DNA of 50,509 nt, filler included, from Sphacelaria rigidula (taxonomy: Eukaryota), in the NCBI GenBank assembly GCA_964200075.2. It is 2 parts of 2 records of this genome, joined end to end, with 100 filler letters (N's around TTAATTAATTAA, not from the genome) between each part and the next. Parts side by side here need not be neighbours in the genome. Positions count along the whole stretch, not along the records: positions 1 to 25,208 come from CAXNAA020000173.1; 1 more part is not named here. One strand, 5' to 3'. Made by a program: the position numbers and the translations under genes. Below the pieces are notes generated by a model. It searched no databases. It was not told the DNA's origin and saw only the letters and a program-made list of their open reading frames with translations. This document shows positions 6,476 through 49,600 of the stretch, one piece after another; the stretch's first letter is position 1, and each line of letters begins with the position of its first letter.

Positions 6476-9400
6476 TGTGTATTGTCCCATCTATTCTGGA
6501 CGCCGATCTCCACCTTTCGGTATATGTGGGCGCACCAGCCGCGGCTGTGTTATCATTCAGCTTCGCCCAAGATACAGGCAGCCGTTAGAGCGGCGGAGGC
6601 GGCCTTTCACTCCTGCGTGCGCCACCTGGCGCAAACGCACGCTGTAGCTGCAACACGTACAGCTTTACCAAATTTGACGTAGCGATATACTGCAGCGCGT
6701 GGCGTGATATCCTGCGTACACGTTTGCCGCAGATACAAGCTGGTGCATTCATGATGTGGCAAACTGCGTAGGACAACGCGAAATCAATGTAGCACAGGAA
6801 TAGGCTAAGGATGTCACGTCCTGCGGTGTGCTTTGTCACCCTGCACCCTACCGCTGTGCAGTGAGCAGGTAGTACCGCCGAATGCGTCACGATGCGGTTG
6901 GTATACGGTAGTGTCGGCTCCACACTCGTAGGATAACCTCTGCATTGAATTAAATAAAACGCATTGAATTAAATTACAATGACGGGGAGCGTTATGTTCG
7001 AGCAGCACGCGCGCTAGCGTTTTCTGTGTTGTCGACATCGTGCCAGCGCGCTTGTGTACTAAAGCGCTGTACTCCCCTGTGGTAGCCCGTCACGGTAGTG
7101 CTCTTCACGTTTCATCACGCTTTATTCGAAAACGCGCAGAAGAGATACCAGCGAGTCCATCGTTGTTGCAATTGGATTGTGGTGAACCAGTTGTTTTTCG
7201 ATAGAACCCCCGCATGCTGCGTGTTGTACCAAATAGTATACCATACCAGTTCAAAAACGGATATGCATTATGTATACGCCACCGACATGCTCTGGTCATC
7301 ACAAACTGTGTACGAGGCGCGGAAAGCGTAGTTTTTGTCAAGGAAAATACGAGCACAACCATACTGCACTACAGGCAGTATGAAACACGTAATTCGAACG
7401 AGACACAAGACGAAACATTTATTTACATTTGTGATGAATACCTGGGCGTTTTGACACTGAAACGAGTCCACTAGTCTCTTCACTACCTACCATACGAAGA
7501 TGGCAAGGGTTGGACGAATCGGACGTTACTTGATTTTTAGTTTTGATTCGTACCGTACGAATTAATCCTTAGGCTTTGTTTTCAGCGTTGCAACCCAGGT
7601 ACGCGCAGCCCAGACACGTGGAATGGCGCAAACGTTGCGTGGATATCTGGAGCTGTTTGACCAGAGGTCGACTTTTTTCTCTCTTTCGAGCAATCAGGCC
7701 TACGAAGTTGTGGATTTGGTTATTCGAATCGGCGATGATTCGTCCGAACTGTGGAAGATAGATACCACGTTTAAATTACACACAAGAGAGTTTCGGGGGG
7801 AAAAAAATCAGAGGTCAGGGGTAACAGCGAGAAACGACTGGATTGTTTACGCTCGAACCCCAGGTTTGTTTTTATTTCATTTTACCACGTAGGTGTGGAC
7901 CGTGGCCAACGTTTCAGGGTTTTGTATTTCCTGTTCCGAAAGCCACATGGTCAGTGTCATGAGTTCAAAAGGTACAAGTCGCGCCGTGCTTTTCTTCGTT
8001 TGTAATCTGTGCCCATCCATGCGGTGTTACCCATACAGCGCGGGAGAGCCTGTACAGAGTCGTGCTACGATAGGTTAGGTGCATGATTCTAGGTGAAATG
8101 AACTCATAGATGTCTCGCACAATCTGACACACTCGCCGTGCGCTTGTATTTGGGTAAAACGGCGTCAAGCAGTATGGATGAGCGTTATTTATCGGTAACA
8201 CGCCCGTTCTGAAGGTCGTTGCTCCTAAAATCGATTCTAAGTTGAATTTAGTGGAAGCAACCGCACAAAATACCCCCCGTCCTTTCCTAGCATGACTAAG
8301 TTGTTCATGCTGTCCCCGTACCGTGGAATACGCGACAGCAGTATATTCGACTTAAAGGTCGACGAGGGAAGGGGACTGCTGAACCCATTCGCGATATACT
8401 TCAAAGGCAAGCACCGCAGAAGGAAGGTGGAGTGCTGAAAACATACCAAAAAGAAAAAAACTCCTGTGTTGGCCCTCCTCCGTGTGACCCCGGCTGGTGC
8501 GCTCGCATATACCGCAAGGTGTAGACCGGCGTCCGGAATGGATGGGACGACAACTCACTCACACAGTATCGTCAACACAGCCTCCGGATACGAACCCGGC
8601 ACAGTACACAGCGTTCGGCACACAGGCAGTGCACCTCGGCGCCCGCTAGTCATTCACAAGTCCTGCACGTGGTGTGTGGTACAGCACTATAATGTCAAGT
8701 TGAGACAGTGAAGGGTTGTACTGTAGTACTGTTGTTGAACTGTCTGTAGACAGTATTGTATACTTTCTGTAGTAAGTGTTCTGTACCGTACTATTGTCTG
8801 TAGCAAAAGTGTACACATGCCCGTGTGTGGGCGTTTGGATACTTTGAGAAAGTGCAGTAGTTTTCGATAAATATTCATTATACGCAGTAATCTCAGCTGC
8901 GTGGAGGCGGACGGGGGAACAGAGACATCTGTCGACCTGGCTATAGATGACTTGGAAGGACTGGAGTGGGTCACTCACGCAGCCGCTACGAGGGTCTCGA
9001 CAAAATGTCCACATAACGGTGGTGTACCTGCGCGAGCTAACGCAAGCTTCACATTGGGTGGCCATTTTTGTCAAGTCCTCGTAGCAGCTGCTTGAGCGGC
9101 CGACTCCCGCCCTTTCGCATCATCATAAGCCAGGTCAACTGATGTCTCGGCTCCTCCGTTCGCCTCCAAGTGTTCCTCGTAGTCTAGGGTCACCCTCGTG
9201 AACGACCTGCCATCTCCAGCGCTGTCGCAGGCGTTCACGGCATCCGCCATCGCCTCACTTACGATATTTGTCCTACGTCAGCCTACGGCTGTGTTCTGTA
9301 ACCTTGGTCGTTATGGGGAAGGGTTCCTAGTTCCGTTTCATAACCCTGAGTGTGGCACCAACTCTTTGGGGTGATTAGCAACTCAGGGTTTATTTGGAAA

Positions 9401-10166
9401 ATTGAAAATCAATCCTGAGTTGCTGCGCATGTCTCTTCTCAGGGTTCAGTTTTAAGGGTTTACCTAGGTGAAATCGTCACATCCTGGCCTTAAATCCCAG
9501 CCTCTGAACCCTGACCCTGAGTGTTTCCGGCCGGTTTTGTGTTTCCGAAGCTCTCTGATAAGTCACGGGCAGACCTTATTACTTGAGTGTGGAAGGGCCC
9601 AGCCAAGACCATTCCGGTTTCACCGCCGAAATCTGAGACGGCAACGTCACGAACACCGTAATAAATTGAAATTGGAAGTGCCCTAGACACAGGGCAATCT
9701 ATAGAATATATCGCCCACTATAATTTGTGTGATACTCGTACCTCAAGTCGATAACTGCAACGCTACACTTCGAGACAACAACAGTGTGTAAAATTCTCCG
9801 GGGTATGAAATGCCACACGCGACTCGCGCCATAGCGGCTGTGTTACCATACAGATCCGCCCAAGATACATGCAGCCATGACAACAGCAGAGGCGGCCTTT
9901 CACTCCTGAGTGCGCAGCCTGGGGCAAACGCACGCTGTAGCTGCAACACGGAGAGATTTACAAAATATTACCCCGCGTACACGTTGACCGCAGATACGAG
10001 CGACTGCGTGCATGATGTGGCGAACTGCATAGGACAGTGCGAAATCAATGCAGCACAGGGATGGGCTAAGGATGTGACGTTCTGTGGTGTGCTTTGTCAC
10101 CCTGCACCCTGCCGCTGTGCAGTGAGCAGATACTGCCGCCGAAGACTTAACGCCGCGGTTGGTACG
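6476..10166. repeat. Dispersed repeat fragments: 6540-6905 ~ 9834-10166 (direct); 6476-6545 ~ 8490-8555 (inverted)
   Basis: Shared GGCGGCCTTTCACTCCTG, GCAAACGCACGCTGTAGCTGCAACACG and GGTGTGCTTTGTCACCCTGCACCCT. The ORF track shows matching peptides (LQLQRAFAPG; PI[HY]SGRRS). Confidence 0.7.
8902..9168. repeat. Imperfect ~110-bp inverted repeat (foldback) with ~45-nt loop
   Basis: Arm 8902-9012 (TGGAGGCGGACGGGGGAACAGAGACATCTGTCGACCTGGCT...) aligns to the reverse complement of 9058-9168 (TGGAGGCGAACGGAGGAGCCGAGACATCAGTTGACCTGGCT...). Confidence 0.8.
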
Positions 10167-10499
10167 CAGTGTCGAACACGTCGCAGCAAACAGCATATTT
10201 CATGTACAACAGACGAGGATATGTGTTTCAACACCGATGCGCACAGAGTGGGACCCGCATCTAGAGAACCATGCCCCACCTCGTTTTAGTGGATACATGA
10301 ATCGTTTCAGCAAAAAACGCCTGCGACATGTGCTGTAACGAATGTCATGCATCATGCAGCTTTCTCCCATATGCGGCACCGCCCGTGCAGCGAGCTGTTG
10401 CAGCTAACAGTGCCCAAGTCTCTTCCCACGATGACCTCCTGTCTGAGCTCGAGATAATTGAACTGCGGGACATGACTTCAACTAGTAGAACGTACACCT

Positions 10500-13043
10500 C
10501 ACCGTGATTAAAGCTTCCATGTTATCGGAAAGGAACAACACTGACGGATGTCTTTCCGGAACGCGCACTGCAGCGGCTTCAGCAATTTGAAAAACGCTGC
10601 ACCGAACCCAAAATATACTTGAAAACGCGTTTCCTTCAACGCCTTGGGGCTTTTCGGATCTGCTGTAGCGAACTGGTCAATTGGGCTCCTATAGTCCGTA
10701 GGTTCAGTGTGTGTGCGGGCGGGTGTGAGGTGCCACAGGCCGGTTTGCTTCCTGGGTCGAGAACGAGGCGATGAAAAAATACAGCTGTCGCATACTAAGC
10801 CAAGATGGCTTGGATTCTGTCCAGCAAAAGATCAGCAGAGGTTAGGCACAGGTCCGACAGTCCATGACATCTTCATTACTCCTCCGCGTTTCTTTTTTTG
10901 TCTTTTCCTCATGGATTTCTGGTCGCTAGGGCCTTCATCCACGGGCATAATTGTGCAAAAACGTCATTTGCGGTATACAACATGAATTGACTGAGCAACA
11001 TACTGGCTCAAAGGCGAGTTGGTAAATATTGAGCGAACAACCTGTGAACCGTTCTAGGAATGTAATTTGTATCGGTCGTACATACAGCCGGCCACGTATG
11101 ACTTGGAGGTTTGTTATTCGCACAGCATGTTCCTTTGGGAGATGCACCAACGCATATCTTCTGTGGAAGACATTTTATGTCGCACAAGCGCAACATGTAT
11201 TGACCGCGCAAATTGTTTCACGCCCGAAGTGGGCACTATGTTGCCGGCTCAATAGGTTGTGCGTGGGTTAGTGCCTGAAAAGTCGGACGTAAATGAGAGC
11301 AGTATGTATTAAGGGCGTGTGATATACGGGTGGGCCCATAGGCAGTATGTGTTATGGGCGTGGGATATATGGGTGGGCCCATAGGTGCAACATTTTCCGA
11401 CGGGAAATTGAGGTCTTGTGTTGGATGTAACCTATCGAAACACCTCCAAAGTATTTTTCGCGATACGTTCTCAGCATGTACTGTAGCTATCCTATATCGA
11501 CGCCCCCCGGTGTGCACCATGTAAGGACAATATAATAATACTCTTTCTTTGGTTTGTGCTCGATGTACCGATCAATCGATATATCCGGAGCCGAGGGGGG
11601 AATGCATGTTGAAGCGTGCTGCTCGGTTCCAGTCCATACCAAACGATCAGAGACCACCACGACCACATATAGTGGGGTATCCCAATCGCATAGTTTGTTG
11701 TGTGATTTATCGTGACACACACGGGCGGCGGTGCATATGGTGCATTCCCCTTCACATGTGAAGCCAACTTCATTCGCAAACTCGGCATCAACTGTCGAGG
11801 CACACTACGCAGGAACTTCAAGTAAATTGGGCAGTCCATAAGGGCTTCGTCGAGGATCGTGGATTTGTTGAACATCGATGATGTAGCCATCCATTCGTCA
11901 TGAGCTGTCTTCCGGAAATCATCGAGATTATTATGTACCGGTGTTGAGGCGGGACCTGAGCTTTTATAAACTGCAACCACCGCGAAATGCATGTCTTCAA
12001 GCATGGGCTTCACCGCTCAAGCCATACCGTGACTTTGCGACTTCCATACAGAATAGACAGTCAGCAATCGGTAGACACCGATACCTTCTACTCCTTCAGC
12101 GAGTAAACCTCGGTAGTTTTTTTTTTCTCTATTCCGGAGTTTATTGTTCACCCCCCCGTCTCGTGTCTCCTGGTTGCGTTGAGTCTGAGTTTCCTGAGTT
12201 GGTCCAGCATTCAGCAAGGCACTGACTTTCGGTTCTCGCATGAAGGGGCAGAAAGTTCAGCGTTTGTTGCTCTTGTTCTCATCACCAGTCGCTTCAACCG
12301 CCTTCCCTCCAGTATGTCGTCTTTCTGAGCTATCGCTTGGAAGATGGGTCAGTATTGACCGAGAATAAAGCAGGATTCCGTACATTTTCGGTAGGACTCC
12401 CGACTCACTCATGGAAAGATCAACTTGGGTTGTTCACTCATGTGTTTCGTGTAGTTCCACGTGCTTGTTCTATAATTTCCCGCACTCGTTCGTTACATGC
12501 ATGCCATGAGTGTTGCAGAAACTGAAGGTTTGTAGCCGTCACTCTCCGAGGAACCTGCCTGCCTTATGAGGGCTGGAGTCCTTGTCCGCTTGTGCCAATA
12601 CGCACAACTTTAGCGGCAGCACGTGCCGATGCAGAAATTGGCGGGATTGTACTTATGACCAGGACGGTAACTCCTCTTAATCATGCCACTTCATCCGCGC
12701 AAATGGCTGAAGTAGAGTGAAGGAAGTTTTCTGAGGGAGAGACATTTGTGATATAACAACATTCGAATTTTGCAGAACTTTTTGCATGACACAACTGACG
12801 GCGACAGAGGGTGGGCTACGAATTTCTTGTGGAGTCTCGATATTTTCCAACTTTCAACAAAATGTATACACGTTTGTTGGTGTTTTTCGCAATCAATACC
12901 ATCCCATACTGGTGGTTTTCGGCCATAGTGTATGACACGTGTTTGCGTCGCTTCTTTGCATGGGCGGCGCAATCCAATGAAGAAGCTAGTGGTCGAATGA
13001 TGTAGGATTTTACAAAGCTCTCCATCGGAGGAATCGGCAGCAC
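10500..13043 (-). pseudogene. Decayed minus-strand coding region of unknown origin (transposon- or virus-derived?)
   Basis: Several protein-like fragments on the minus strand (11492-12013 MKPMLEDMHFAVVAVYK..., 12816-13043 MESFVKSYIIRPL...) broken by stops and frameshifts. No family recognised. Confidence 0.3.
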
Positions 13044-13346
13044 TACGTTATGTATTGGAAATGGCGACAGTGCGAAGACCTACCCGATCTTCACATAATA
13101 ATGGCCCACACAAGGTATGAGCCGCCCGTACTTACCATTTTTCCTCGAAGTACTGAATGCTTCTTTTTGACAAACACGTGACAATATTTGACCCAGTTTT
13201 TGAATCTGGTAAATAATCTCAGGCAGCATCGGGAAGGACAGCCTGCCCCTCTTCGGCATTCGACAGTGGGACTGCTACAAGCCACCGAAATTTTGTGCGC
13301 TAGAGCCTCTCGTTTTGCCGACGTAGCGGCGATGCTAGCTTGGCAG

Positions 13347-13711
13347 TGCGCCCAGAAGGGTTGCTTGAAGTGATCACAACATGGCATGACGGGCGTCAAC
13401 GTCGTGGAGGTGCCGACGGTCGATGAAGTAAACAACAGAGTGCGGTTAAAGAGGGCATCTCCAAACGACTATCGTACGGTGTAGCGGGAAGCCGGGTGGC
13501 GGAGTTCTGTGCTGGTCATGCTAGACAAGGGATGATCGATGTGAGGAGCAAGACGTGCGGCAACGAGGGCTGCTCCAAACGACCATCTTACGGTGTAGCG
13601 GGGAATCGAAAGGCGGAGTTGTGTGCCGAGCACACCAGGGTGGGGATAATGGATGTGAGGAGCAAGAAGTGCGGCAACGAGGGCTGCTGGTAGAACCCAT
13701 CGTATGGTGTT
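13347..13711 (+). pseudogene. Disrupted 5' EsV-1-7 repeats upstream of the main ORF
   Basis: Same frame as the main ORF from ~13450, but TGG TAG AAC at 13688-13696 replaces TGG AAG AAC of sister repeats. Further degenerate units at ~13441 (1-nt frameshift) and ~13347 (CAQKGCLK*). Confidence 0.75.
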
Positions 13712-16195
13712 GTGGGAAGCAGGTTGGCGGAGTTCTGTGCCGAGCACGCAAGAGGTGGGATGGTCAATATAGTGAGCAAGAAGTGCAGCAACGAGGGCTG
13801 CTCCAAACAACCATCGTACGGTGTAGCGGGAAGCCGGGTGGCGGAGTTCTGTGCTGATCACGCTAGACAAGGGATGATCGATGTGAGGAGCAAGACGTGC
13901 GGCAACGAGGGCTGCTCCAAACGACCATCTTACGGTGTAGCGGGAAATCGGAAGGCGGAGTTCTGTGCCGAGCACGCCAGGGTGGGGATGATCGATGTGA
14001 GGAGCAAGAAGTGCGGCAACGAGGGCTGCTCCAAACGACCATCTTACGGTGTAGCGGAAAATCGGAAGGCGGAGTTCTGTGCTGATCACGCTCAGGGAGG
14101 AATGATTGATGTTGTGAGGAAAAAGTGCGGCAACGAGGGCTGCTTCAAACGACCATCGTATGGTGTTGTGGGAAGCAGGGTGGCGGAGTTCTGTGCCAAG
14201 CACGCGAGAGGTGGGATGGTCAATGTAGTGAGCCAGAAGTGCGGCAACGAGGGCTGCTCCAAACAACCATCGTACGGTGTAGCGGGAAATCGGAAGGCGG
14301 AGTTCTGTGCTGATCACGCTAGACAAGGGATGATCGATGTGAGGAGCAAGAAGTGCGGCAACAAGGGCTGCTCCAAACGATCATATTACGGTGTAGCGGG
14401 AAATCGGAAGGCGGAGTTCTGTGCTGATCACGCTGAGGGAGGAATGGTTGATGTTGTGAGGAAAAAGTGCGGCAACGAGGGCTGCTGGAAGAACCCATCG
14501 TATGGTGTTGTGGGAAGCCGGGTGGCAGAGTTCTGTGCTGATCACGCTAGACAAGGGATGATCGATGTAAGGAGCAAGAAGTGCGGCAACGAGGGCTGCT
14601 GGAAGAACCCATCTTATGGTGTAGCGGGAAGCCGGAAGGCGGAGTTCTGTGCTGATCACGCTGAGGGAGGAATGATTAATGTTGTGAGCAAGAAGTGCGG
14701 CAGTGAGGGCTGCTTCAAACGACCATATTACGGTGTAATCGGAAGTCGGAAGGCGGAGTTCTGTGCTGATCACGCTGAGGGAGGAATGACTGATGTTGTG
14801 AGCAAGAAGTGCGGCAGTGAGGGCTGCTTCAAACGACCATCTTACGGTGTAATCGGAAGTCGGAAGGCGGAGTTCTGTGCCGACCACGCGAGGGTGGGGA
14901 TGGTCGGTTTGAGGAGCAAGAAGGGCAGCAATGAGGACTGCTCGAAGAACCCATCGTATGGTAAAGCGGGAACCCGGGTGGCAAAATTCTGTGCCGACAA
15001 CGCCAGAGTAGGGGTGGAAAATGTGAGGAGGAAGGAGTGCGGCAACAAGGGCTGCTTTGGACAACCATCTAACGGTGTAGCGGGAAGGCGGAAGGCGGAG
15101 TTCCGTGTCAAGCACGCCAGAGTGGGGATGATCGATGTGAGGAGCAACAAGTGCGGCAACGAGGGGTTCTCCAAACAGCCATCTTACGGTGCAGCTGGAA
15201 GCAGGGAAAGACTCTTCTGGGGCGACCACTCAGGGACAGGTATGGTCAATGTAGCGAGCGAGAAGTGCGGTGAGAAGGGCCCCTTCATACAACCATTGGA
15301 CGGTGTAACGGAAAACCGCGAGGCAGAGGCCTATACTGACCACGTCAGGGCGGGGATTGTCGATGTAGTAAATATAAAATGCGTCAACGAAGGCTGCTCC
15401 AAGAAACCCTATTACGGTGCAGCGGGATATCGGGCGACGAAATTCTGTTCAAATCACCTAAGGGTGGGGATGGTTGATGTAGCGAGCAACAGGTGCGGTA
15501 ACAAGGGCTGCTCCAAACATTCATCTTATGGCGGAAGGGGAAGTCGGAACGCGCAGTTCTGTGCTGATCACGTGAGGGCGGGGATGGTGAATGTTATGAG
15601 CAACAAGTACGGCAACGAGGGCTGCTCGAACCGGCGTGTGAATCGCGCGGATGATGTCGAACAGGGTAACGTTTGCCAACATGCCGTATCGCAAGCAACC
15701 AGGCGGGGGCAACGTGGAGACATCTTCGATGAAAATTTCACTAATGGCGGACAACCCGATTATTCTACCAGTCACGGGGGTGGTGCGGGTGATGTTGGGT
15801 TTGGCCCTGATTTGCTCGTAAGTTCTGAACTTGTTGGTACCGCGTCGTCGCAGGCTGCCGAGGGTGCCGAACGCGGACCTCTGAGGACAAGGCCGCACGC
15901 GAGGGTGAAATTGGAAGCGTCTGCTCTCCTTCAGCGTTCCCGGCAAAGCTTTCGAAGGAGGGTTGGCGTGACCACCTCCTCTGATGAAGGTGGGGGCAGC
16001 AAGATTGGCAGTACGTCCAGCGGTAGTTGCGATGAAAGAATGAAGAAGCGGATTTGCAGGACGCCGTCGACAGTTGGCGAACACCTTCCGGCAGAGGACG
16101 CTGTTGTCGATGCTTCTTCAGTGGTGTTTTATGGTAGAGAGGAAGGCGTGAAGGTGGAGCTGGCAGTTCCGGCCCCGTTTCCCCCCCTTGCGTGA
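13712..16195 (+). CDS. EsV-1-7 domain (cysteine-rich repeat) protein, intronless; 16 full 38-aa repeats in this ORF plus a low-complexity C-terminal tail
   Basis: 114-nt/38-aa units of the form CGNEGCSKRPSYGVAGNRKAEFCADHARQGMIDVRSKK (C-x4-C-x16-C-x2-H). This matches the EsV-1-7 repeat of brown algal IMM-family and phaeovirus EsV-1 proteins. First in-frame ATG is at 13760. Confidence 0.85.
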   Translation: MGSRLAEFCAEHARGGMVNIVSKKCSNEGCSKQPSYGVAGSRVAEFCADHARQGMIDVRSKTCGNEGCSKRPSYGVAGNRKAEFCAEHARVGMIDVRSKKCGNEGCSKRPSYGVAENRKAEFCADHAQGGMIDVVRKKCGNEGCFKRPSYGVVGSRVAEFCAKHARGGMVNVVSQKCGNEGCSKQPSYGVAGNRKAEFCADHARQGMIDVRSKKCGNKGCSKRSYYGVAGNRKAEFCADHAEGGMVDVVRKKCGNEGCWKNPSYGVVGSRVAEFCADHARQGMIDVRSKKCGNEGCWKNPSYGVAGSRKAEFCADHAEGGMINVVSKKCGSEGCFKRPYYGVIGSRKAEFCADHAEGGMTDVVSKKCGSEGCFKRPSYGVIGSRKAEFCADHARVGMVGLRSKKGSNEDCSKNPSYGKAGTRVAKFCADNARVGVENVRRKECGNKGCFGQPSNGVAGRRKAEFRVKHARVGMIDVRSNKCGNEGFSKQPSYGAAGSRERLFWGDHSGTGMVNVASEKCGEKGPFIQPLDGVTENREAEAYTDHVRAGIVDVVNIKCVNEGCSKKPYYGAAGYRATKFCSNHLRVGMVDVASNRCGNKGCSKHSSYGGRGSRNAQFCADHVRAGMVNVMSNKYGNEGCSNRRVNRADDVEQGNVCQHAVSQATRRGQRGDIFDENFTNGGQPDYSTSHGGGAGDVGFGPDLLVSSELVGTASSQAAEGAERGPLRTRPHARVKLEASALLQRSRQSFRRRVGVTTSSDEGGGSKIGSTSSGSCDERMKKRICRTPSTVGEHLPAEDAVVDASSVVFYGREEGVKVELAVPAPFPPLA

Positions 16196-19100
16196 CTGTT
16201 ATCAACACGAACGCGAGTCAGTGATTATGACATACTCGTTGCACGCCGATCTGTAGCTCAGCGCCAGTCGTTTCCTCAAGGGTTTGGTGGTATATTCAAA
16301 TGCGCCGCCCCAGCCCCCGTTTTCGTGCGTGTCGGTGCGACAGGGTAGAGATGTTCTCGTGTTACCATGATGATGTCTGCGCCGGAATTCTGTTGTTCGT
16401 TCGACGAGGTGCTCTGTTGAAGACGCAGTTTCCACGAGTGTGTTTTTGTTGTTGTAGCGGGCATGAACGCTGTTATGTCTGTCCTGGTGGTTGACACCAC
16501 TACAGCGTAGTACAGAATGCTCATGCGTCAGGTGCTGCTGTGCTGTGAGTATTGTAGCATCTATTCGCTGGGAACAAATCGTGTGTCGCCAATGGAAGAA
16601 CCGGCTTGTCGAGGATGTCACATGCTCGTAAGAAACCGTATGACCCGTGCACTTGCCAACGTCCAATACTTAACAGAGTGCACATGTGTGTCAAGGGTGT
16701 TAGACGATTAAGCGAAGAGTGTAGTCCTGGTATCGTGGATCAGAGGGACAGGCTTTGACAGTACGCTTTCGGCGTGAGTGGTGAGAATATACGGAAATAA
16801 TTGCAAGCTATTCGTCACCGGGTCTACAGCAGCTTGTACATTACTTCCGCGGTTAAAAGAGGGTATGGCATCCGTTTAGCATCCACCGGTGCTTCTGCCC
16901 CATTCTCCGCTTTCTCTCGTCCTTGTTGTGGCAGCAACAGTAGCTGACCGGTCTTTATCGATTTCAACGTTTTGGCTATAACTGCATCTGTGCTATAGAC
17001 CGTGAAAAAGATCTGAAGAGGGTCGCACTGTTTTGCCTCTAGTGGGACCAGCCTATGGAAGCCTGTATTGATGCGGAGAAAATTCAAGTTAGGCCTGTCA
17101 AGTAACAGCCGATCATCAAAAATGAGGATTGGGCTTTTCATTGAGGATGAGAACCCGGAGAATTAAAATTCCTTCGAGGCCCGTAGGGCTGAAAAGGCTT
17201 CTACTGATTCTAGATCCAAAAAGTGTCCTTTCCATCTCGACCTTATTTCGAGGCTCCGAACCACGCACATTTCTTCCCCGAATTGATTCGAAGCCGCGCT
17301 GCGCAAACATACCACCCCATCGTTCTTCTAACATCAATGGAGACACCCTAAATAAGTTTCAGCTTCATTGGTGCTCATGGCGTTGTGTTTCGCTTCTGTC
17401 TCTGGGCGCACTCAAGAACGCCCACAATTCCACCCCTTTCGAGCAGCGCGAGTCTTAATTGAGCTTCTCGGACCTGAATGTCGCAACTTCAATCGAGGTA
17501 CTTTTGGAGATTGGAGACATCACACGCAGCAGCCGGCGCTCCGAATCACTTTGAACACCCTCAATAAGGTTCACCTTCATTGCTGCTTTCTTCGTTGTGT
17601 TCGCTTGTGCGTGCCGACGCTGTCCGTGGCTGAGGTGAAGGCGGTATCAAAGTATATGATCGAGCTATCAGCCATCGGGCACACGATTGATCTGAGCGAA
17701 ACTCGGTTTCCATGTCGACAAACGGCGAGCGTACGGGTTCCCCTCATCGAAGAGTACGAGGACGGTAGAGACGTTCACTGACTGAGATCGGGTTGTCAGG
17801 GCGTGAAGGTTTGCCCAGAGAGCGAATAGGTCAGATAACAAGGATGGACCGACTAGAAAATCGGTCTAAGGAGGAGCGACAAGAAGATGAGCCTGGCTAT
17901 AGTCGAATCCACAAGGAGTTCGCATCTACTGTCGTCATCGCTGTCTGTCTTGGTCACTCTCCTGTCTTTCCTGTCTCGCCTCTTCTCAGTCTACAGCCAA
18001 GAATTCGTGTAATGTGTACTGAGGGTGCCTTTCCTCTGGTGAATATTTGACGTCGGCAACCCAAGGCAAGGCGTGTGTGGTCTGTTTGTAGCGTCGTGAC
18101 CCAGTGAGAGGATGGGGTGCAGACTCGACTCAGATGGTCGATCAATGGACACGACTGCGATAGTCGATCAATGGACACGGCTGACTGCCGATCAAGATGA
18201 GATAGAAATGTATATAAAGCTTTGTTGACGAAGAGGGAAGGAAGGGGGGTGATCGCAGTTGGGTTCAAGGTCCCAACATGCGACGAGCACCACTCACGTA
18301 TGTCCAGTCACAAACATCACAATATAAAGTCATCCCGCGTAGTACCCGGAATTCAAACAGGTATATCACTAGACTGTTGTACCTTACCCTGACTAGGTGT
18401 ATCTTACTGACCACCGCAGGCTATCCTACGAACACCCCCCCCATTGACTACAGCGTCAAATGTAAGGTTCAAGGATCATGCTCAGTGAACAGAACTACCC
18501 ACCGGAAAAAGAACTCTTCCGCTCACGGTGCATTCAGCAGGTGTATCCTCTCAAGAAATGAATTTCATCAACAACCGTAAAACCACCGTAAATCCCACAA
18601 CTCGTCGCTTCTTTCAACGACTATGGGACCAGCCAAGAATCAAATACATTGGTACATTTCTCTTCACACCAAGACAAAATAACAGGGATGGATGAGCTAT
18701 GTGTTTCACCACACTGTAGCTCCTGATGGTCAACCCAAGCGAAACGCAAGTCAAATTCTTCAACTGTACTTGCCCATGCCCCTCACAATAGCGTGGATGG
18801 TCGTACTTAGCATTCGAGTAACCTGCACTACGCACGCGAGACCAAGCTCCTAGGTAACATGTATGAACCCACACAACACGGTGCAGTTGAAAAATTTCGA
18901 AACTCGGATCACATGTTGCAAAATCCGCTTCACAGTCAGTCAGCTGCCTACAGTACAATAATCAAATTTCAAAATTCAAATTCAGCAATCCATACTACAG
19001 TAGTGCCTACGTCATCAAACCAAACTAGACACCCACTACATCTACTTAACCCCTTATTCCCCCTCGGTGACCGGCGGAGCAAAGCAGCTCAACGCCTCCA

Positions 19101-19469
19101 GACAAAACACACGATCAGCATCAGCCACCCCCAATTCTTGCTAATCAAAGTCTTCCCCCCCCCGCTTCTAGGCCACGGGGAAGGAGTGCTGCATTCATCA
19201 TCTTTCCCCCGTAGCGGGGAGATTTGCAGCGAGGGGTTGATCTTGATCCTGGTCGGTCACCGCCCTTCAAAACCAACCGTCACGTCATGCTCGTCTCAGC
19301 CTTACAGACAGCACCTGTGTCGGGCAAAAATGGTTTTTGGAGGCTCAGCGTCTCACAGATCGTGCAGACCCGAGGGGAATGGGCAGTGGGACAACAGAAA
19401 GGAAAAGTATTCATATCCATGTTACTCAGGCGCGTCAATCACCAACCGATAAACATACTCTCACCACGT

Positions 19470-19952
19470 ACCGTACTAACACTATATTCGTGAGATTCAG
19501 AACGTAGTTTTAGGTTCAGAGTAAGACCCGAAACAATTGACTTTCCCGTCGATTTTGACATCGCCACAGTTTGAGGAGTAATGCGCCCAGCTGATGGAGC
19601 GGTGGCTCCAATGGAAGCTGTCACCTACACAATCATTTTGACACGTCACTTGATCGAAACGAGGTAGTCAGTCCATTGCAACAAAAGATCCCCTCTTTCA
19701 GGAAAAACCGATTAGTGCCTGAAACAGTTTCAGTTCCGAAATGCCCCCCATGCGTAAAAATGCTTCGTGCCGTATCTCACCAACCAGACCGCCGAATTCC
19801 TCGAATGGGGTACTGTACGGTAGCTGCATGCACAGGACGTGTGCTCAAGCAAAAAAACAGGGAAAACGTTGTCTGTTAGGAACGCTAGAGCATCCACTCT
19901 GAATCTGAAACTACGTTCTGAATCTCACGAATATATAGTGTTTACTATGGTG
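19470..19952. mobile_element. ~480-bp TIR element nested in the LTR retroelement
   Basis: ~50-bp inverted repeats: ACACTATATTCGTGAGATTCAGAACGTAGTTTTAGGTTCAGAGT (~19479-19522) vs ACTCTGAATCTGAAACTACGTTCTGAATCTCACGAATATATAGTGT (19896-19941). Outer limits are approximate. Confidence 0.7.
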
Positions 19953-21134
19953 TCGCGTTACGGCAGTCGCGAACGCACACCCACATATTTCACGTGGATC
20001 CAGAACTATTATTTCAACTCTTCACTTCTCCTTCACATACAACACATGGATCAAACGGCAGTTCGGCCGCTACCATCCTGGTTGCATGAAACAGTACACT
20101 TTGCCTTTTACATGCCGTGCCAACATGTGTAAAACTGTATGGAATTCGCCTGGCCAGCCAACCGAGCAACGACCAGCTCCCATATGGGTGATACAATGCA
20201 CTCTTCTTTATCATGCTGTGCACATGAACCGCATCTCGCACATAACGTCAGCTCTATCTGTTAGCCATCAAATATGGATCACATGCGTTTTGCTGACCTG
20301 TAGCATAGGAATTTCATTTGTGCCCACAGTAAGTCTTCCGATATTATCATGATCAGGCCAAGCTACTAGTATTGCGCTATACTCAGTCCTTGCTCCTACC
20401 ATAACAACGATGTCTTATCAACCAATCCAGTCAAGAAGCCGATGCCTCGCGAATCCTACACCTCTCGGAATGATAACAACTTTTTTACTTAGATGTCGAG
20501 TTTCGGAACCCACCTCAAAACTTGTGGTCTCAACCATCATTCGTCCGCATACCCCTCTGCGGAACATTTTACCGACATCACCCTCTAGTCTAGTCAGACA
20601 GTGGTGCCCCACGTGCCTGTACTCACCAAGGCGACGAACAAGGTTCCACCCCAACCGATCGAGTAAGGGTGTGGTGCCCCACAGTCCTGCGCTCATCGGG
20701 GTGTCAAAAATATTACACATAAGCGTTGAGTTTCGGCATCCATGTCAAAACGTGTTCTCAACACTCTTCACGCACTTCACTCTGAGCAATTTTACCGACA
20801 CCGTTCCACAGTCAAGTCAAGTCGCGGTGCCCCGCTCTCCTCACACTTACAAAAACGGCAGACGATCTTCTACTCATCAATCGAGTCAAAACGAACGCGC
20901 AAAGTAAGTCTGCACTCATCGAGATAGAAATTCGTCAAACATCAACACTGAGTTTCGGTGTCCACATCAAAAAGATGATCTCAGCATTGTCCAGAGATAT
21001 CCAACATTTCGATCCACCTGGGCAACAACCTTTCCTTGGGTACATGAATCGCTACCTTCATGACGGTCACGAACACTCAAAACATAAAAACAAAGGGCTA
21101 TTTGAGTCATACATAGGTCTCATGCCATCATTTT

Positions 21135-46600: not shown

Positions 46601-49600
46601 TGGAAAGCAAGACCCTCACTTGGCCCTACTGTGCGAGGTGAGCTACGAAGCATTGAGTGGATTGTCGGGAAAATGAAGGTTGGGTTGGGTCGGTGCCACG
46701 AGGGGCGCATCGGAGGTTATCGTGGAGTAGAGGCACAGCAGCCATGAGAGGGGGGGGTTCTTGGAGTGGTGAGAGGACCTTTTTACAGGTCTTTTTCATG
46801 CCGTATCATATCTGTAATACATTGCAGCAATGTCGTTAGCTTTGTGTACCCCCCTTCCCACTGATTGCCAGCCTGGTCCGTGGAAAACCCGGCTTGCGCC
46901 CGGCTTTGTAGGAATGGGATGTCAATGATCTTATAAATACAGAGTACAAAATTACGAGTACCCCTTCCCCCCCCCCTCCCCGCTCCTCCCTTTTGAGGGT
47001 TGGCATCGGTTGGCAACGACGCTGTCGAATACGCCGCTCTCTGCGTGAGCTAGGCACCAGGCCATCGTTCTTTTTGACGCCTGGGTTTTTATGCGGTATC
47101 CATGATGGCCGAGCTATATCATATTGTGCGGAGTGGGAGAACCCAAACACCGCGCAAAAGGGGATGGTTGTACTACGTAGTGTTCATATGATGAGATATC
47201 CATGAGGCAGTGTGTCACTCATGGCTGTTTCTGAAAGTGACTATACCGGAGCAGCAACTGATTGTAGGTTGTCATCCATATGCAAGATAATCATTACGCT
47301 TCGGGCCGAACAATCTTGGCAGGATGTAGCTCACCCTTCATACGACTCGCCGAACGCATCACGGCACTCCGCGCTTGATGATTGCGAGCCTGGCCCGGCG
47401 CAGACCCGGGGTGCTCCGTCCCGGCTTTGTAGGGATGCGAGGTTAATCCTCCTCCGCCACCCTGCGTCGGCCGCCCGTCGTATCTGCCGTTGCGGTCCGT
47501 GTATCGATACGCGTTGTTTGATCCATTTTTCTCACGATGTCTCGCTCACTGGCCCACCCTCTCTGCAATTACCTGTTCCAGCACTGCGATGATGAGTACC
47601 ACACGTACTGCCTAAACCCGCCGTTGGCTGAGGTGCCAAAAGGCAAATGGTACTGCGACAACTGCAAGGCGAAAGGCTTGGATGTTGCAGACGGGAGCAA
47701 GGGACCGCGCAGCGGTGGAGGGGGCCGAGCAGCGGCGAAGCCATCTGCTCCAAAGGCTGCGGTGGCGGCAGCAATGACTGCCACGCGCGTTTCACCTCGG
47801 GCTGCGGCGGCGGCGGCGAAGGCAAGTAGCGCCGCGGGAGGTAGCTCTCTAATTGGTGCCACGGCAGGACCCGTGAGGACGGATGCCCCAGTCGCAACAT
47901 CGGTAGTAACGACGAGAGCAGCAGTTGGAGGCGGAGGCGGCTTTTCAGGGACAGGCAATGTCGCTACAGTGGGCGGTGCTTTGTCGCAGGATGGGCAAAA
48001 TATCAAGCGACAGCCGGGGGGTGTTGCCTCCCCGCACGCGAAGCCTTCTCGACAAGGGAGAGGATCGGCGGCGTCAGCTTCGCCAGGGGCACCGAAGAAT
48101 CTCCCATGGTCGAGTATGCCGGACGGCGGTCTCGTGCCTGAACTAGCTAGGACGCGCATGGCCAGCCGGCCGCCGGTAGGAGACAACCGGAGGGGGGGCG
48201 AAGGACGAGGTGGTCGTGCCCCCACCCATGGAGTTCCACAGCGTGTGCGCGGTCGAGCGAATGGAGAGAGGGTTACGGAAGAAGGTTCTGGAGCCAGGGG
48301 TGGCGGCGTTGAAGGATCCAGATCGAGTAATGGCGCGGCTACGGGAGCAGTGACGCCCGGGAGGGGGGGCGGCGCTGGCCGTGGTGGTACTTCGTGTACT
48401 AGTGAACAACCGCTGTCTCCAGGAGAGAATAAAAGAAAAAAGAAGAGGATAGAGGATCTTGTAATACCGGCGACAGCCCCGGGACCGGGGCTTACTGCGA
48501 CGCCGATCAATGTTCCGGCATCGGCAACTTCAGCGCCTCCGGCGGCGGCATTACAAGCAGCGCAGGCAAGCACTGCTGAACCAGCCATGTTGCAGGCGAC
48601 AGAAACTGTGGCTCCGGGAATGCAGGTTCAATCTGGCTCTTCCGTCGCACCGAACGCGTCATGCTTGCCTTACCCCGCGGATTCAATCCCTTCGCCGTCG
48701 TTGCCTGCGCCGCTTTCTTCCGCGGCGCTCCCGAGTGCCCCCTCCCCGGGAACCGTCCCCAGCTGTACAGCCGAGGCGGCCGCCACCACCTTCGCTGCCG
48801 CAACCGCGGGGTCGATGGCGCTTACTACCGACAACAAGAACAAGGCACGAGCGCGACCACGAAAAAAGAGGGCCAACGAGGGCGGCGGCGGCGGCGTGGG
48901 GGCCGCGGAGGAGGACCGCCGTGACGCGACCGCGCAGCAATCGGCGTCCATGGACCAGGAGACCTCGGTCTCATCTGGGGTGACGCCGTCCGGACACGAG
49001 AAAGGAACCTCAAGCAAATCCACCGCCGTCGCGGCTGAGGCGACTGCTGTTATTCATCAATCACCGAAGCGAAACGACACCAAACCTGCCAGGAAGCAAT
49101 CAAAGAAGAAGGGCTCTTCGGGCGGCGCTGGTGCCGGCGAGGGAGACGATGCAGTATCATCTGATGGGGCGCCGAAGGCGAAGCGACGGCGAGATAGTGC
49201 TCCGGGGGGGATTGGCCGAGGAGCGGGGGGGCGCGGCGGTAGTGGGTCGGGTGCCGCCGCGGGTGGGCGGACGGGGGGTGGCAGGCGAGGGGGGGGACAA
49301 GGGGGCAGGGGTAGCAGAGGTGGGCGAAGTCCCGGGATAAAGCCCCCAAGTGAAAACCTGTATAGCAGGCCAAGGTCACACCACCGAGCGCCGCCGTCAC
49401 CGACTGCGGAGGGCGTCAACGGGCTGGAGCCGACTCGACGTTCGAGAAGGAAGGTATGTGCAATAGTTGGTGGCGAACTAATGTATGACGCGTGTTCATC
49501 GATTGGGGGGAAAGTCTTCCGTCTGTTGTCCTGCTCTCCAGAGCTCAAACGCTTTTTTATATGGCTGTGAGGAGTTACTTGACGTTGATCCGCTCCCTCC

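Follow-up and report, generated by a model that had tools for sequence, protein, structure and literature searches.

The EsV-1-7 repeat family and a long array in Sphacelaria rigidula

EsV-1-7 proteins (PF19114 / IPR043822), among them IMMEDIATE UPRIGHT (IMM) and the product of gene 7 of the phaeovirus EsV-1, are built from tandem units of 38 amino acids with the pattern C-x4-C-x16-C-x2-H. The same unit forms a long array on record CAXNAA020000173.1 of the brown alga Sphacelaria rigidula (assembly GCA_964200075.2), in a 50.5-kb stretch of DNA (50,509 nucleotides (nt)) that we refer to as the window, and along whose whole length all positions are counted. In the available portions of the literature on the family, the repeat is described as possibly a new type of zinc finger, with neither function nor ligand known, in line with the first-pass annotation of the window, which had called it a suspected zinc finger with no established ligand. 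According to the same portions, the family comprises 2018 proteins across 31 genomes following a large expansion in brown algae, IMM acts as a developmental regulator whose biochemical function is unknown, and its orthologues were defined by Denoeud et al. via a unique N-terminal domain located before five repeats. All Ectocarpus members are reported there to be without other Pfam domains, and an Ectocarpus Tc1/mariner transposase carries an N-terminal EsV-1-7 domain (Genome Biology, PMC12477816). We found no ligand, recognition code or nuclease-like fusion described in the accessible parts of the literature mentioning EsV-1-7 or PF19114 / IPR043822. One of the largest brown-algal family expansions, with a developmental regulator among its members, thus has a biochemical function that the present locus leaves unsolved.

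Tandem arrays of small modules that combine a conserved scaffold with polar variable residues and inter-repeat recombination are likewise found in TALE, PPR, PUF and C2H2 proteins. Unlike these, the Sphacelaria array has no discrete set of 2-4 hypervariable positions, and its units show a high synonymous divergence (pS 0.34) that covaries with the short residue words by which they differ. No structural or sequence match of the array to TALE, PPR, PUF or C2H2 proteins was found by Foldseek, VIA-align or PDB profile searches. The locus is a new, very long and partly decayed member of the known EsV-1-7 family. We consider it probable that it represents a large repeat exon of a brown-alga EsV-1-7 gene in which a few unit variants were block-duplicated and recombined, and that this particular copy has come under relaxed constraint and has partly decayed.

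Tandem Repeats Finder (TRF) reports a period of 114 nt in 19.2 copies at 13439-15627 (75% matches, 2% indels, score 1882) and, for the same array, a higher-order period of 342 nt or 3 units (score 2151). We numbered the units 0-17 from 13556 in steps of 114 nt. They lie in register at 13556+114k in the frame of 13427..16195 on the plus strand, and all 18 (13556..15607, C-x4-C-x16-C-x2-H-x12) are free of indels, as concluded from TRF, Pfam and a hidden Markov model (HMM) of the unit; this confirms the earlier count of ~18 units and adds a decayed unit on either side. PF19114 (EsV_1_7_cys) matches 16 stretches in 13694-16195 with E 5.1e-213 and 689 bits, where the cut-off is 25, and 2 further stretches in 13427-13690, 5' of an in-frame TAG, with 84.6 bits. 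The proposed membership in the EsV-1-7 family is thereby borne out far above the gathering score, and the array is real and well above chance expectation by both TRF and Pfam. No other Pfam domain is present in the array gene, and the unit HMM located no EsV-1-7 motif outside the array in the window. The ligand pattern is complete in 14/18 units, with unit 1, which also bears the TAG, counted among them. The five-residue words that had been read in the first 12 units (SKRPS, W*NPS, SKQPS, SKRPS, SKRPS, FKRPS, SKQPS, SKRSY, WKNPS, WKNPS, FKRPY and FKRPS) are all exact, the asterisk being a genuine in-frame TAG at 13691-13693, and the second variable slot (ARQ, ARV, ARG and AEG, among others) is equally exact, with AQG present in addition in unit 4.

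We compared the array to its relatives. A unit spacing of 38 residues is also the mode among them, accounting for 377/657 successive unit-match spacings (777 matches in the 120 proteins listed). The 18 units found here compare with a maximum of 12 in the 120 relatives listed when counted with the unit HMM, and Pfam unit counts, made on five relatives, reach up to 15 (P0016). The best named matches, P0006, P0010, P0017 and P0019, all from Sphacelaria rigidula, share 53-61% identity over 29-36% of the query, and no protein at least 62% identical is among the matches listed. The Sphacelaria rigidula paralogues (these four as well as P0031, P0056 and P0100) likewise consist of an array and a low-complexity tail with the pattern [VILM]K.[ED][VLIMW]; they are 462-507 amino acids long with fewer units, and there is no near-identical copy of the locus among them. 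IMM is described, in the parts of its literature available, with five repeats and a unique N-terminal domain, whereas we see no non-repeat N-terminal part in the array gene, only a decayed repeat upstream. The TAG and four ligand-deficient units are features of this gene copy and set it apart from the family.

The repeat variants are copies that spread by duplication and recombination

We analyzed how the residue words of the units relate to silent sites. The A[EQ]G...VV type of second half carries three synonymous markers, namely GGA30, GTT34 and a T in the third position of codon 32, in 4/4 units and in 0/8 others (p=0.002 each). Codon 8 ends in G in 3/3 WKN units and in 0/9 others (p=0.0045), TAT12 in 3/3 WKN units and in 1/9 others, and the RQ and RV types are linked to AGA28 and to GCC24 plus GCC27, respectively. 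Altogether, 8/9 tests of linkage between words and synonymous markers gave p<0.05, and the remaining one gave p=0.13. The candidate specificity residues hence do not vary independently of the neutral background of their unit, and the words are best understood as copies of a few ancestral variants rather than as repeated independent switches.

The layout of the copies points to their mode of spread. The closest unit pairs are located 3-4 units apart, with 94.7% nt identity for 0/3, 2/6 and 4/7 and 89.5% for 1/5, and mean unit identity is 0.853 at lag 3 vs. 0.806 at lag 1 and 0.796 at lag 2. Even unit 13, which is degenerate, retains 88% nt identity to unit 3. First-half and second-half types occur in several pairings, with WKN seen together with RG, RQ and EG, and all four gametes are present in 181/406 informative site pairs (Rm=8), which requires at least 8 exchanges within a unit of 114 nt. 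We conclude that the words are identical by descent and were spread via duplication of 3-4-unit blocks and recombination inside the unit. Block duplication together with unequal crossing-over or gene conversion accounts for the appearance of a fixed scaffold with a small vocabulary, and we caution that any young tandem array can mimic a fixed scaffold with switching words by these processes alone, which synonymous markers can reveal.

In this mechanism, about four ancestral half-unit variants (first halves SKR, SKQ, WKN or FKR; second halves RV, RQ, RG or EG), each carrying its own synonymous changes, were multiplied by duplication of blocks of 3-4 units and re-assorted through gene conversion or unequal crossing-over within the unit. 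The ancestral units were under purifying selection, and a later relaxation of constraint would have admitted the TAG and the loss of ligands. DNA or another polyanion would be the most likely ligand of the arrays of this family, bound by many weak contacts of their modules.

Variation is spread over many columns of the unit

The first-pass annotation had limited variation to a few switchable positions. In units 0-11, 24/38 columns are variable, and 14 of these have an alternative residue in at least 2 units (columns 3, 7, 9, 11, 15, 17, 19, 25, 28, 29, 32, 33, 35 and 36), which does not uphold that claim. We next consider column entropy in 438 units drawn from the 120 best database relatives listed. 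Family-conserved columns in this set are C1, G5, C6, K8, P10, Y/F12, G/N13, G16, F/Y22, C23, H26, G30 and M31, together with V/I32, D/N33, V34, K37 and K/R38. Entropy exceeds 2.4 bits in 19/38 columns family-wide, all outside this conserved set, and columns 2-4, 14, 15, 24 and 25 are as variable as columns 7 and 9, which belong to the supposed code. Columns 2-4 have high entropy across the family, yet they are near-invariant as G-N-E in units 0-11, even at most of their synonymous sites. Column 9 contains Arg in 29% and Gln in 26% of the 438 units. When 53 matched unit pairs from close homologues are compared, a broad gradient of low conservation is found (0.38-0.53 identity) with columns 11, 3, 15, 7, 25, 29, 5, 14, 9, 36, 35, 24 and 2 being the least conserved. 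The entropy analysis that had been suggested as a check on the code thus shows no discrete group of 2-4 hypervariable positions, here or family-wide; the unit is not a fixed frame in which only 2-4 specificity positions change.

Older variants were under purifying selection and the youngest changes appear neutral and damaging

The ratio of nonsynonymous to synonymous divergence (dN/dS) pooled over units 0-11 is 0.35 (pS 0.337, nonsynonymous pN 0.141), indicating that the unit variants arose under purifying selection. Variants common to at least 2 units comprise 17 synonymous (S) and 26 nonsynonymous (N) changes, and only 3/26 N changes hit family-conserved columns. The singletons, which represent the youngest changes, comprise 5 S and 18 N changes, and here 12/18 N changes hit family-conserved columns (Fisher p=2.6e-4 vs. 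the shared variants). Older variation has avoided the conserved columns, and the ancestral units were working modules under purifying selection.

A different picture emerges for recent changes. Seven of the eight closest unit pairs have dN/dS values of 0.56, 1.35, 1.41, 1.17, 1.08, 0.99 and 1.79, and the remaining pair has 0 S and 6 N changes. The damage includes the TAG at K8 of unit 1, the loss of Cys1 and Cys6 in unit -1 directly upstream of the array, and the loss of 1-2/4 Cys/His ligands per unit in units 12-15. The youngest changes are neutral-like, comprising the TAG and the loss of ligands and core residues in units 12-15, and such damaging young changes imply that the copy is under relaxed constraint. 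At best, the locus would encode an N-terminally shortened protein from the ATG at 13760 in which 12 ligand-complete and 4 broken units are followed by a tail with a conserved motif; at worst, it would be a pseudogene.

Gene frame and unit inventory

The whole array and its tail are contained in a frame on the plus strand at 13427..16195 that is interrupted once by the TAG and ends with a stop codon at 16193-16195. At its 5' end, a decayed first unit (unit -1, 13442..13555, plus strand) carries the changes Cys1->A, Cys6->I and P10->L and is 89% identical in nt to unit 2. Directly 5' of the array and in another frame, 13347-13394 reads CAQKGCLK followed by a stop; its HMM score is non-significant (iE 0.97), and it may be a relic of one more unit. 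The TAG (13691..13693, plus strand) replaces the conserved Lys8 codon of unit 1, for which units 8 and 9, its WKN sisters, have AAG, and it is backed by an independent contig (see below). The first in-frame ATG past it (13760..13762, plus strand) encodes Met31 of unit 1 and opens a candidate open reading frame (ORF) of 811 codons starting with MVNIVSKKC; 5 gene models from Sphacelaria start likewise at Met31 of a unit (MVNV..KKCG.EGC).

Further downstream on the same strand, the degenerate units 12-15 (14924..15379) each have lost 1-2 zinc ligands and deviate at 3-8 of the 18 family-conserved columns. They are followed by units 16-17 (15380..15607), in which 4/4 ligands are present and which are the most diverged of the ligand-complete units at the nt level, with closest partners 75% and 79% identical. 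A fragment of a 19th unit lies at 15608..15634, after which a low-complexity tail of 195 amino acids extends up to 16192, with the motifs VKLE (15905-15916) and VKVEL (16148-16162). The stretch 16196..17157 on the plus strand, which exact contigs connect to the gene end in runs X1, X5 and X6 (16042-17157 in X1), is possibly a 3' untranslated region, the type of the source runs not being on record.

Independent contigs support the array and its TAG

We used independent contigs from four runs to assess the assembly. A 126-nt contig of run X6 spans 13661-13786 including the TAG with 0 differences, and another letter at the TAG is found in none of the runs. Contigs with 0 differences, found in three runs that belong to two studies, cover 14123-14259, 14645-14766, 14876-15103 and 15136-15627, and inside 13556-14726 no other letters are seen in any run. 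Many contigs are 95-99% alike on the array (726/1164 in X1), and contigs join 13814 to 15538 (X5, X6 and X9) and 13491 to 14213 (all four runs) with 13 or 37 other letters between. The same samples therefore also contain related arrays that are composed differently, whether as paralogues or as alleles. These contigs could also be expected if the array were an assembly artefact, produced by collapsed or chimeric paralogous arrays and with an unreal unit order and TAG, and none of the contigs extends across the full array, so that the order of its units over 2 kb lacks independent confirmation. The exact contigs from three runs of two studies, one of them across the TAG, and the lack of other letters in 13556-14726 argue against an artefact, and we assign it hardly any probability. 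Runs X1, X5 and X6, whose type is not on record, have few contigs on 10670-13007 and cover 13222-17157, and X9 covers both; the contig ends differ between runs, and we used the coverage pattern neither for nor against expression.

Predicted fold, charge and tail motifs

We predicted the structure of units 2-5 using AlphaFold2 and an alignment of 129 rows (pLDDT 93.2, pTM 0.62). In this model, which contains no metal, each unit has strands at residues 12-14 and 31-33, and between them a bridge at 22 and a short helix (24-26) in which C23 and H26 are held. A single unit with its flanks was modeled with pLDDT 83.3. Based on these models, an intact unit would be a small zinc-bound hairpin with a short helix. 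A Foldseek search of the PDB with the four-unit model returned a best E of 1.9, a wide VIA-align search with the same model had no match with Z of at least 2, and a PDB sequence profile search (query A1) gave 0 matches at E<=1; such blanks are uninformative about the fold itself. With the single-unit model, the best VIA-align matches were RING and B-box domains (Z 2.1-2.8, best 2.8), where a Z below 3 is no evidence of a shared fold.

Units 2-17 are strongly basic, with 103 Lys and Arg vs. 60 Asp and Glu residues and a pI of 9.34. The tail pattern [VILM]K.[ED][VLIMW], which was chosen post hoc, is present 1-3 times per tail in 8/8 Sphacelaria relatives and in one Pylaiella relative, and it was not found in a Scytosiphon tail or in three Ectocarpus tails. 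The tail motifs VKLE and VKVEL fit the psi-K-x-E SUMOylation consensus. SUMOylation is common on nuclear regulators.

Relatives carry a putative restriction-endonuclease-like domain

A C-terminal domain with the motif RPD...ExDExQH...NPD is found in 80 of the 120 best relatives listed, most of which are unnamed database entries (HMM built from 72 domains); P0008, P0013, P0016 and P0033 are among its carriers, and 0/15 named brown-alga or eukprot relatives have it. In a six-frame translation of the whole window, the HMM of this domain has only two matches (E 0.27 and 0.34), and the array gene is without it. The viral and metagenomic proteins that combine an array with the RPD...ExDExQH...NPD domain belong to the same repeat family as the array gene but differ from it by this domain. 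Relatives of P0033 are encoded at 21 loci (L001-L021) on IMG/VR contigs of giant viruses, and a single contig of 153 kb carries two of these loci. On such contigs, the same C-terminal domain also follows about eight DUF723 repeats (L015:1555-3570) and a dozen repeats of ~20 amino acids of the type CxH..CxxC (L019:2047-3435 and L013:2209-3546). It behaves as a common effector module behind interchangeable zinc-repeat arrays.

We compared the C-terminal domain to known families. All of its best matches are weak: DUF2726 in 4/11 members with a best E of 8.9e-5, DUF559 with E 0.083, Hjc with E 0.011, and the nuclease domain of the restriction enzyme PvuRts1I with E 0.094 in an alignment that includes the D...ExDE motif; in a protein atlas, PvuRts1I-like_N clusters were assigned at 0.89, just under the tool's 0.9 line, and PHROGs gave no match for the C-terminal domain of six viral relatives. 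The PvuRts1I, DUF2726, DUF559 and Hjc families presumably all share the PD-(D/E)xK fold. Weak but concordant matches thus suggest that the domain may be restriction-endonuclease-like. If the domain is a nuclease, the arrays that precede it would most simply be its DNA-binding part. A DNA-binding role for the EsV-1-7 family is plausible from these comparisons and from the Ectocarpus transposase fusion, and the fusion context would favour DNA as the ligand of the family but gives no support to a per-unit code. The occurrence of repeat and restriction-endonuclease-like domain in most of the close relatives listed provides a lead, as DNA binding can be tested on the viral proteins with an enzymatic read-out.

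Alternative explanations

Several of our observations weigh against a copy whose variants spread by duplication and which is now under relaxed constraint. The contrast in S:N between shared and singleton variants is non-significant alone (p=0.18), and columns 7, 9, 15, 19, 28, 29 and 35 have pN values of 0.39-0.55, which equal or exceed the pooled pS (0.34), in a sample of one codon per column and 12 recombining units in which diversifying selection and neutrality are indistinguishable. The frame stays open for 811 codons past the TAG, and units 16 and 17, the two oldest, keep all ligands, which would be unexpected under long-standing pseudogene decay. The tail retains the short motif, chosen post hoc, that is common to Sphacelaria and Pylaiella relatives. 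In 18 matched unit pairs from close homologues, a comparison of low power, columns 38, 36, 33, 9 and 25 are more conserved between matching units than within one protein, as expected from unit-specific roles. Finally, true code arrays such as TALEs also diversify by repeat recombination, so that shuffling alone excludes no code. Some of these points would fit a functional zinc-module scaffold that is protein-binding or chromatin-associated, an IMM-like developmental or nuclear regulator in which surface residues and unit number drift and no code exists. The long open frame past the TAG, the psi-K-x-E-like tail motifs kept in relatives, the role of IMM as a developmental regulator (as given in the available parts of its literature), and the identity of the only structural matches of the single-unit model, all weak, to RING and B-box domains, which are mostly protein-binding, are in agreement with such a scaffold. 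However, Z values below 3 do not demonstrate a common fold, the fusions of relatives to a nuclease-like domain or a transposase point to DNA and not to protein partners, recent changes fall in conserved columns, and translation from the ATG at 13760 would have to bypass in-frame ATGs at 13532 and 13649 if the transcript begins upstream. We thus regard a scaffold of this kind as unlikely, though as deserving some weight.

The first-pass annotation had instead proposed a working, re-programmable DNA/RNA module in which a base or word is read by columns 7-11 together with 28-29 / 33-36, as in TALE, PPR, PUF or C2H2 proteins. The array is indeed basic, column 9 is dominated by Arg (29%) and Gln (26%) and columns 33 (D/N) and 36 (S/N/H) by side chains capable of hydrogen bonding, and these three columns are among the most unit-specific ones in the 18 pairs from close homologues. 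In addition, the fusion partners in relatives, a nuclease-like domain or a transposase, are ones beside which a module that targets DNA would be expected, and the same C-terminal domain is found behind two other kinds of zinc-repeat array on giant-virus contigs. Against a code stand the linkage of the words to synonymous markers, which identifies them as copies and not as independent switches, and the number of variable columns, with 14 recurrent ones here, 19/38 above 2.4 bits family-wide, and a gradient over at least 13 columns in the 53 pairs. Moreover, the copy bears a TAG and four units short of ligands, and no solved nucleic-acid-binding finger matched the models. Nothing in the array shows one unit reading one base, and the linked words, the many variable columns and the recent damage leave a switchable code in the manner of TALE or zinc finger (ZF) arrays unsupported; we judge a working code at this locus to be highly improbable. 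A broader speculation, to which we grant a small chance, is that EsV-1-7 arrays would add a fourth type to the natural modular arrays that recognize DNA, and would aim a restriction-endonuclease-like domain in giant viruses, of which brown algae kept the aiming part as regulators, with columns 9 (R/Q/N), 33 (D/N) and 36 (S/N/H) reading bases. If this were true, the giant-virus fusions would be a natural counterpart of zinc-finger nucleases, and block duplication with intra-unit recombination would generate new target specificities.

Surroundings of the array gene

The first-pass annotation had further suggested that the array could be aimed at surrounding transposons. Apart from the array gene, the 10 largest ORFs in the window show no transposon domain by Pfam, and none was found in the ORF at 18811-19452 in particular. 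Long inverted or direct repeats flanking the gene were not found within 8000-20500. At 9000-10669 and 17016-19000, the summed word depth of the contigs, which is no measure of copy number, exceeds that of the intervening stretches tens- to thousands-fold in each of the four runs, and these two regions may be repeated DNA that flanks the gene. A single contig of run X9 joins 10537 to 18434 on opposite strands. An inverted repeat at 19483-19522 / 19896-19935, with arms of 40 nt that are 95% complementary and 373 nt between them, has about the size of a miniature inverted-repeat element. Farther away, at 47522-49570 on the plus strand and in a GC-richer stretch (0.57-0.61), an open frame of 682 codons has a PHD-finger match (PF00628, E 8.3e-6, 26.2 bits vs. 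a cut-off of 24).

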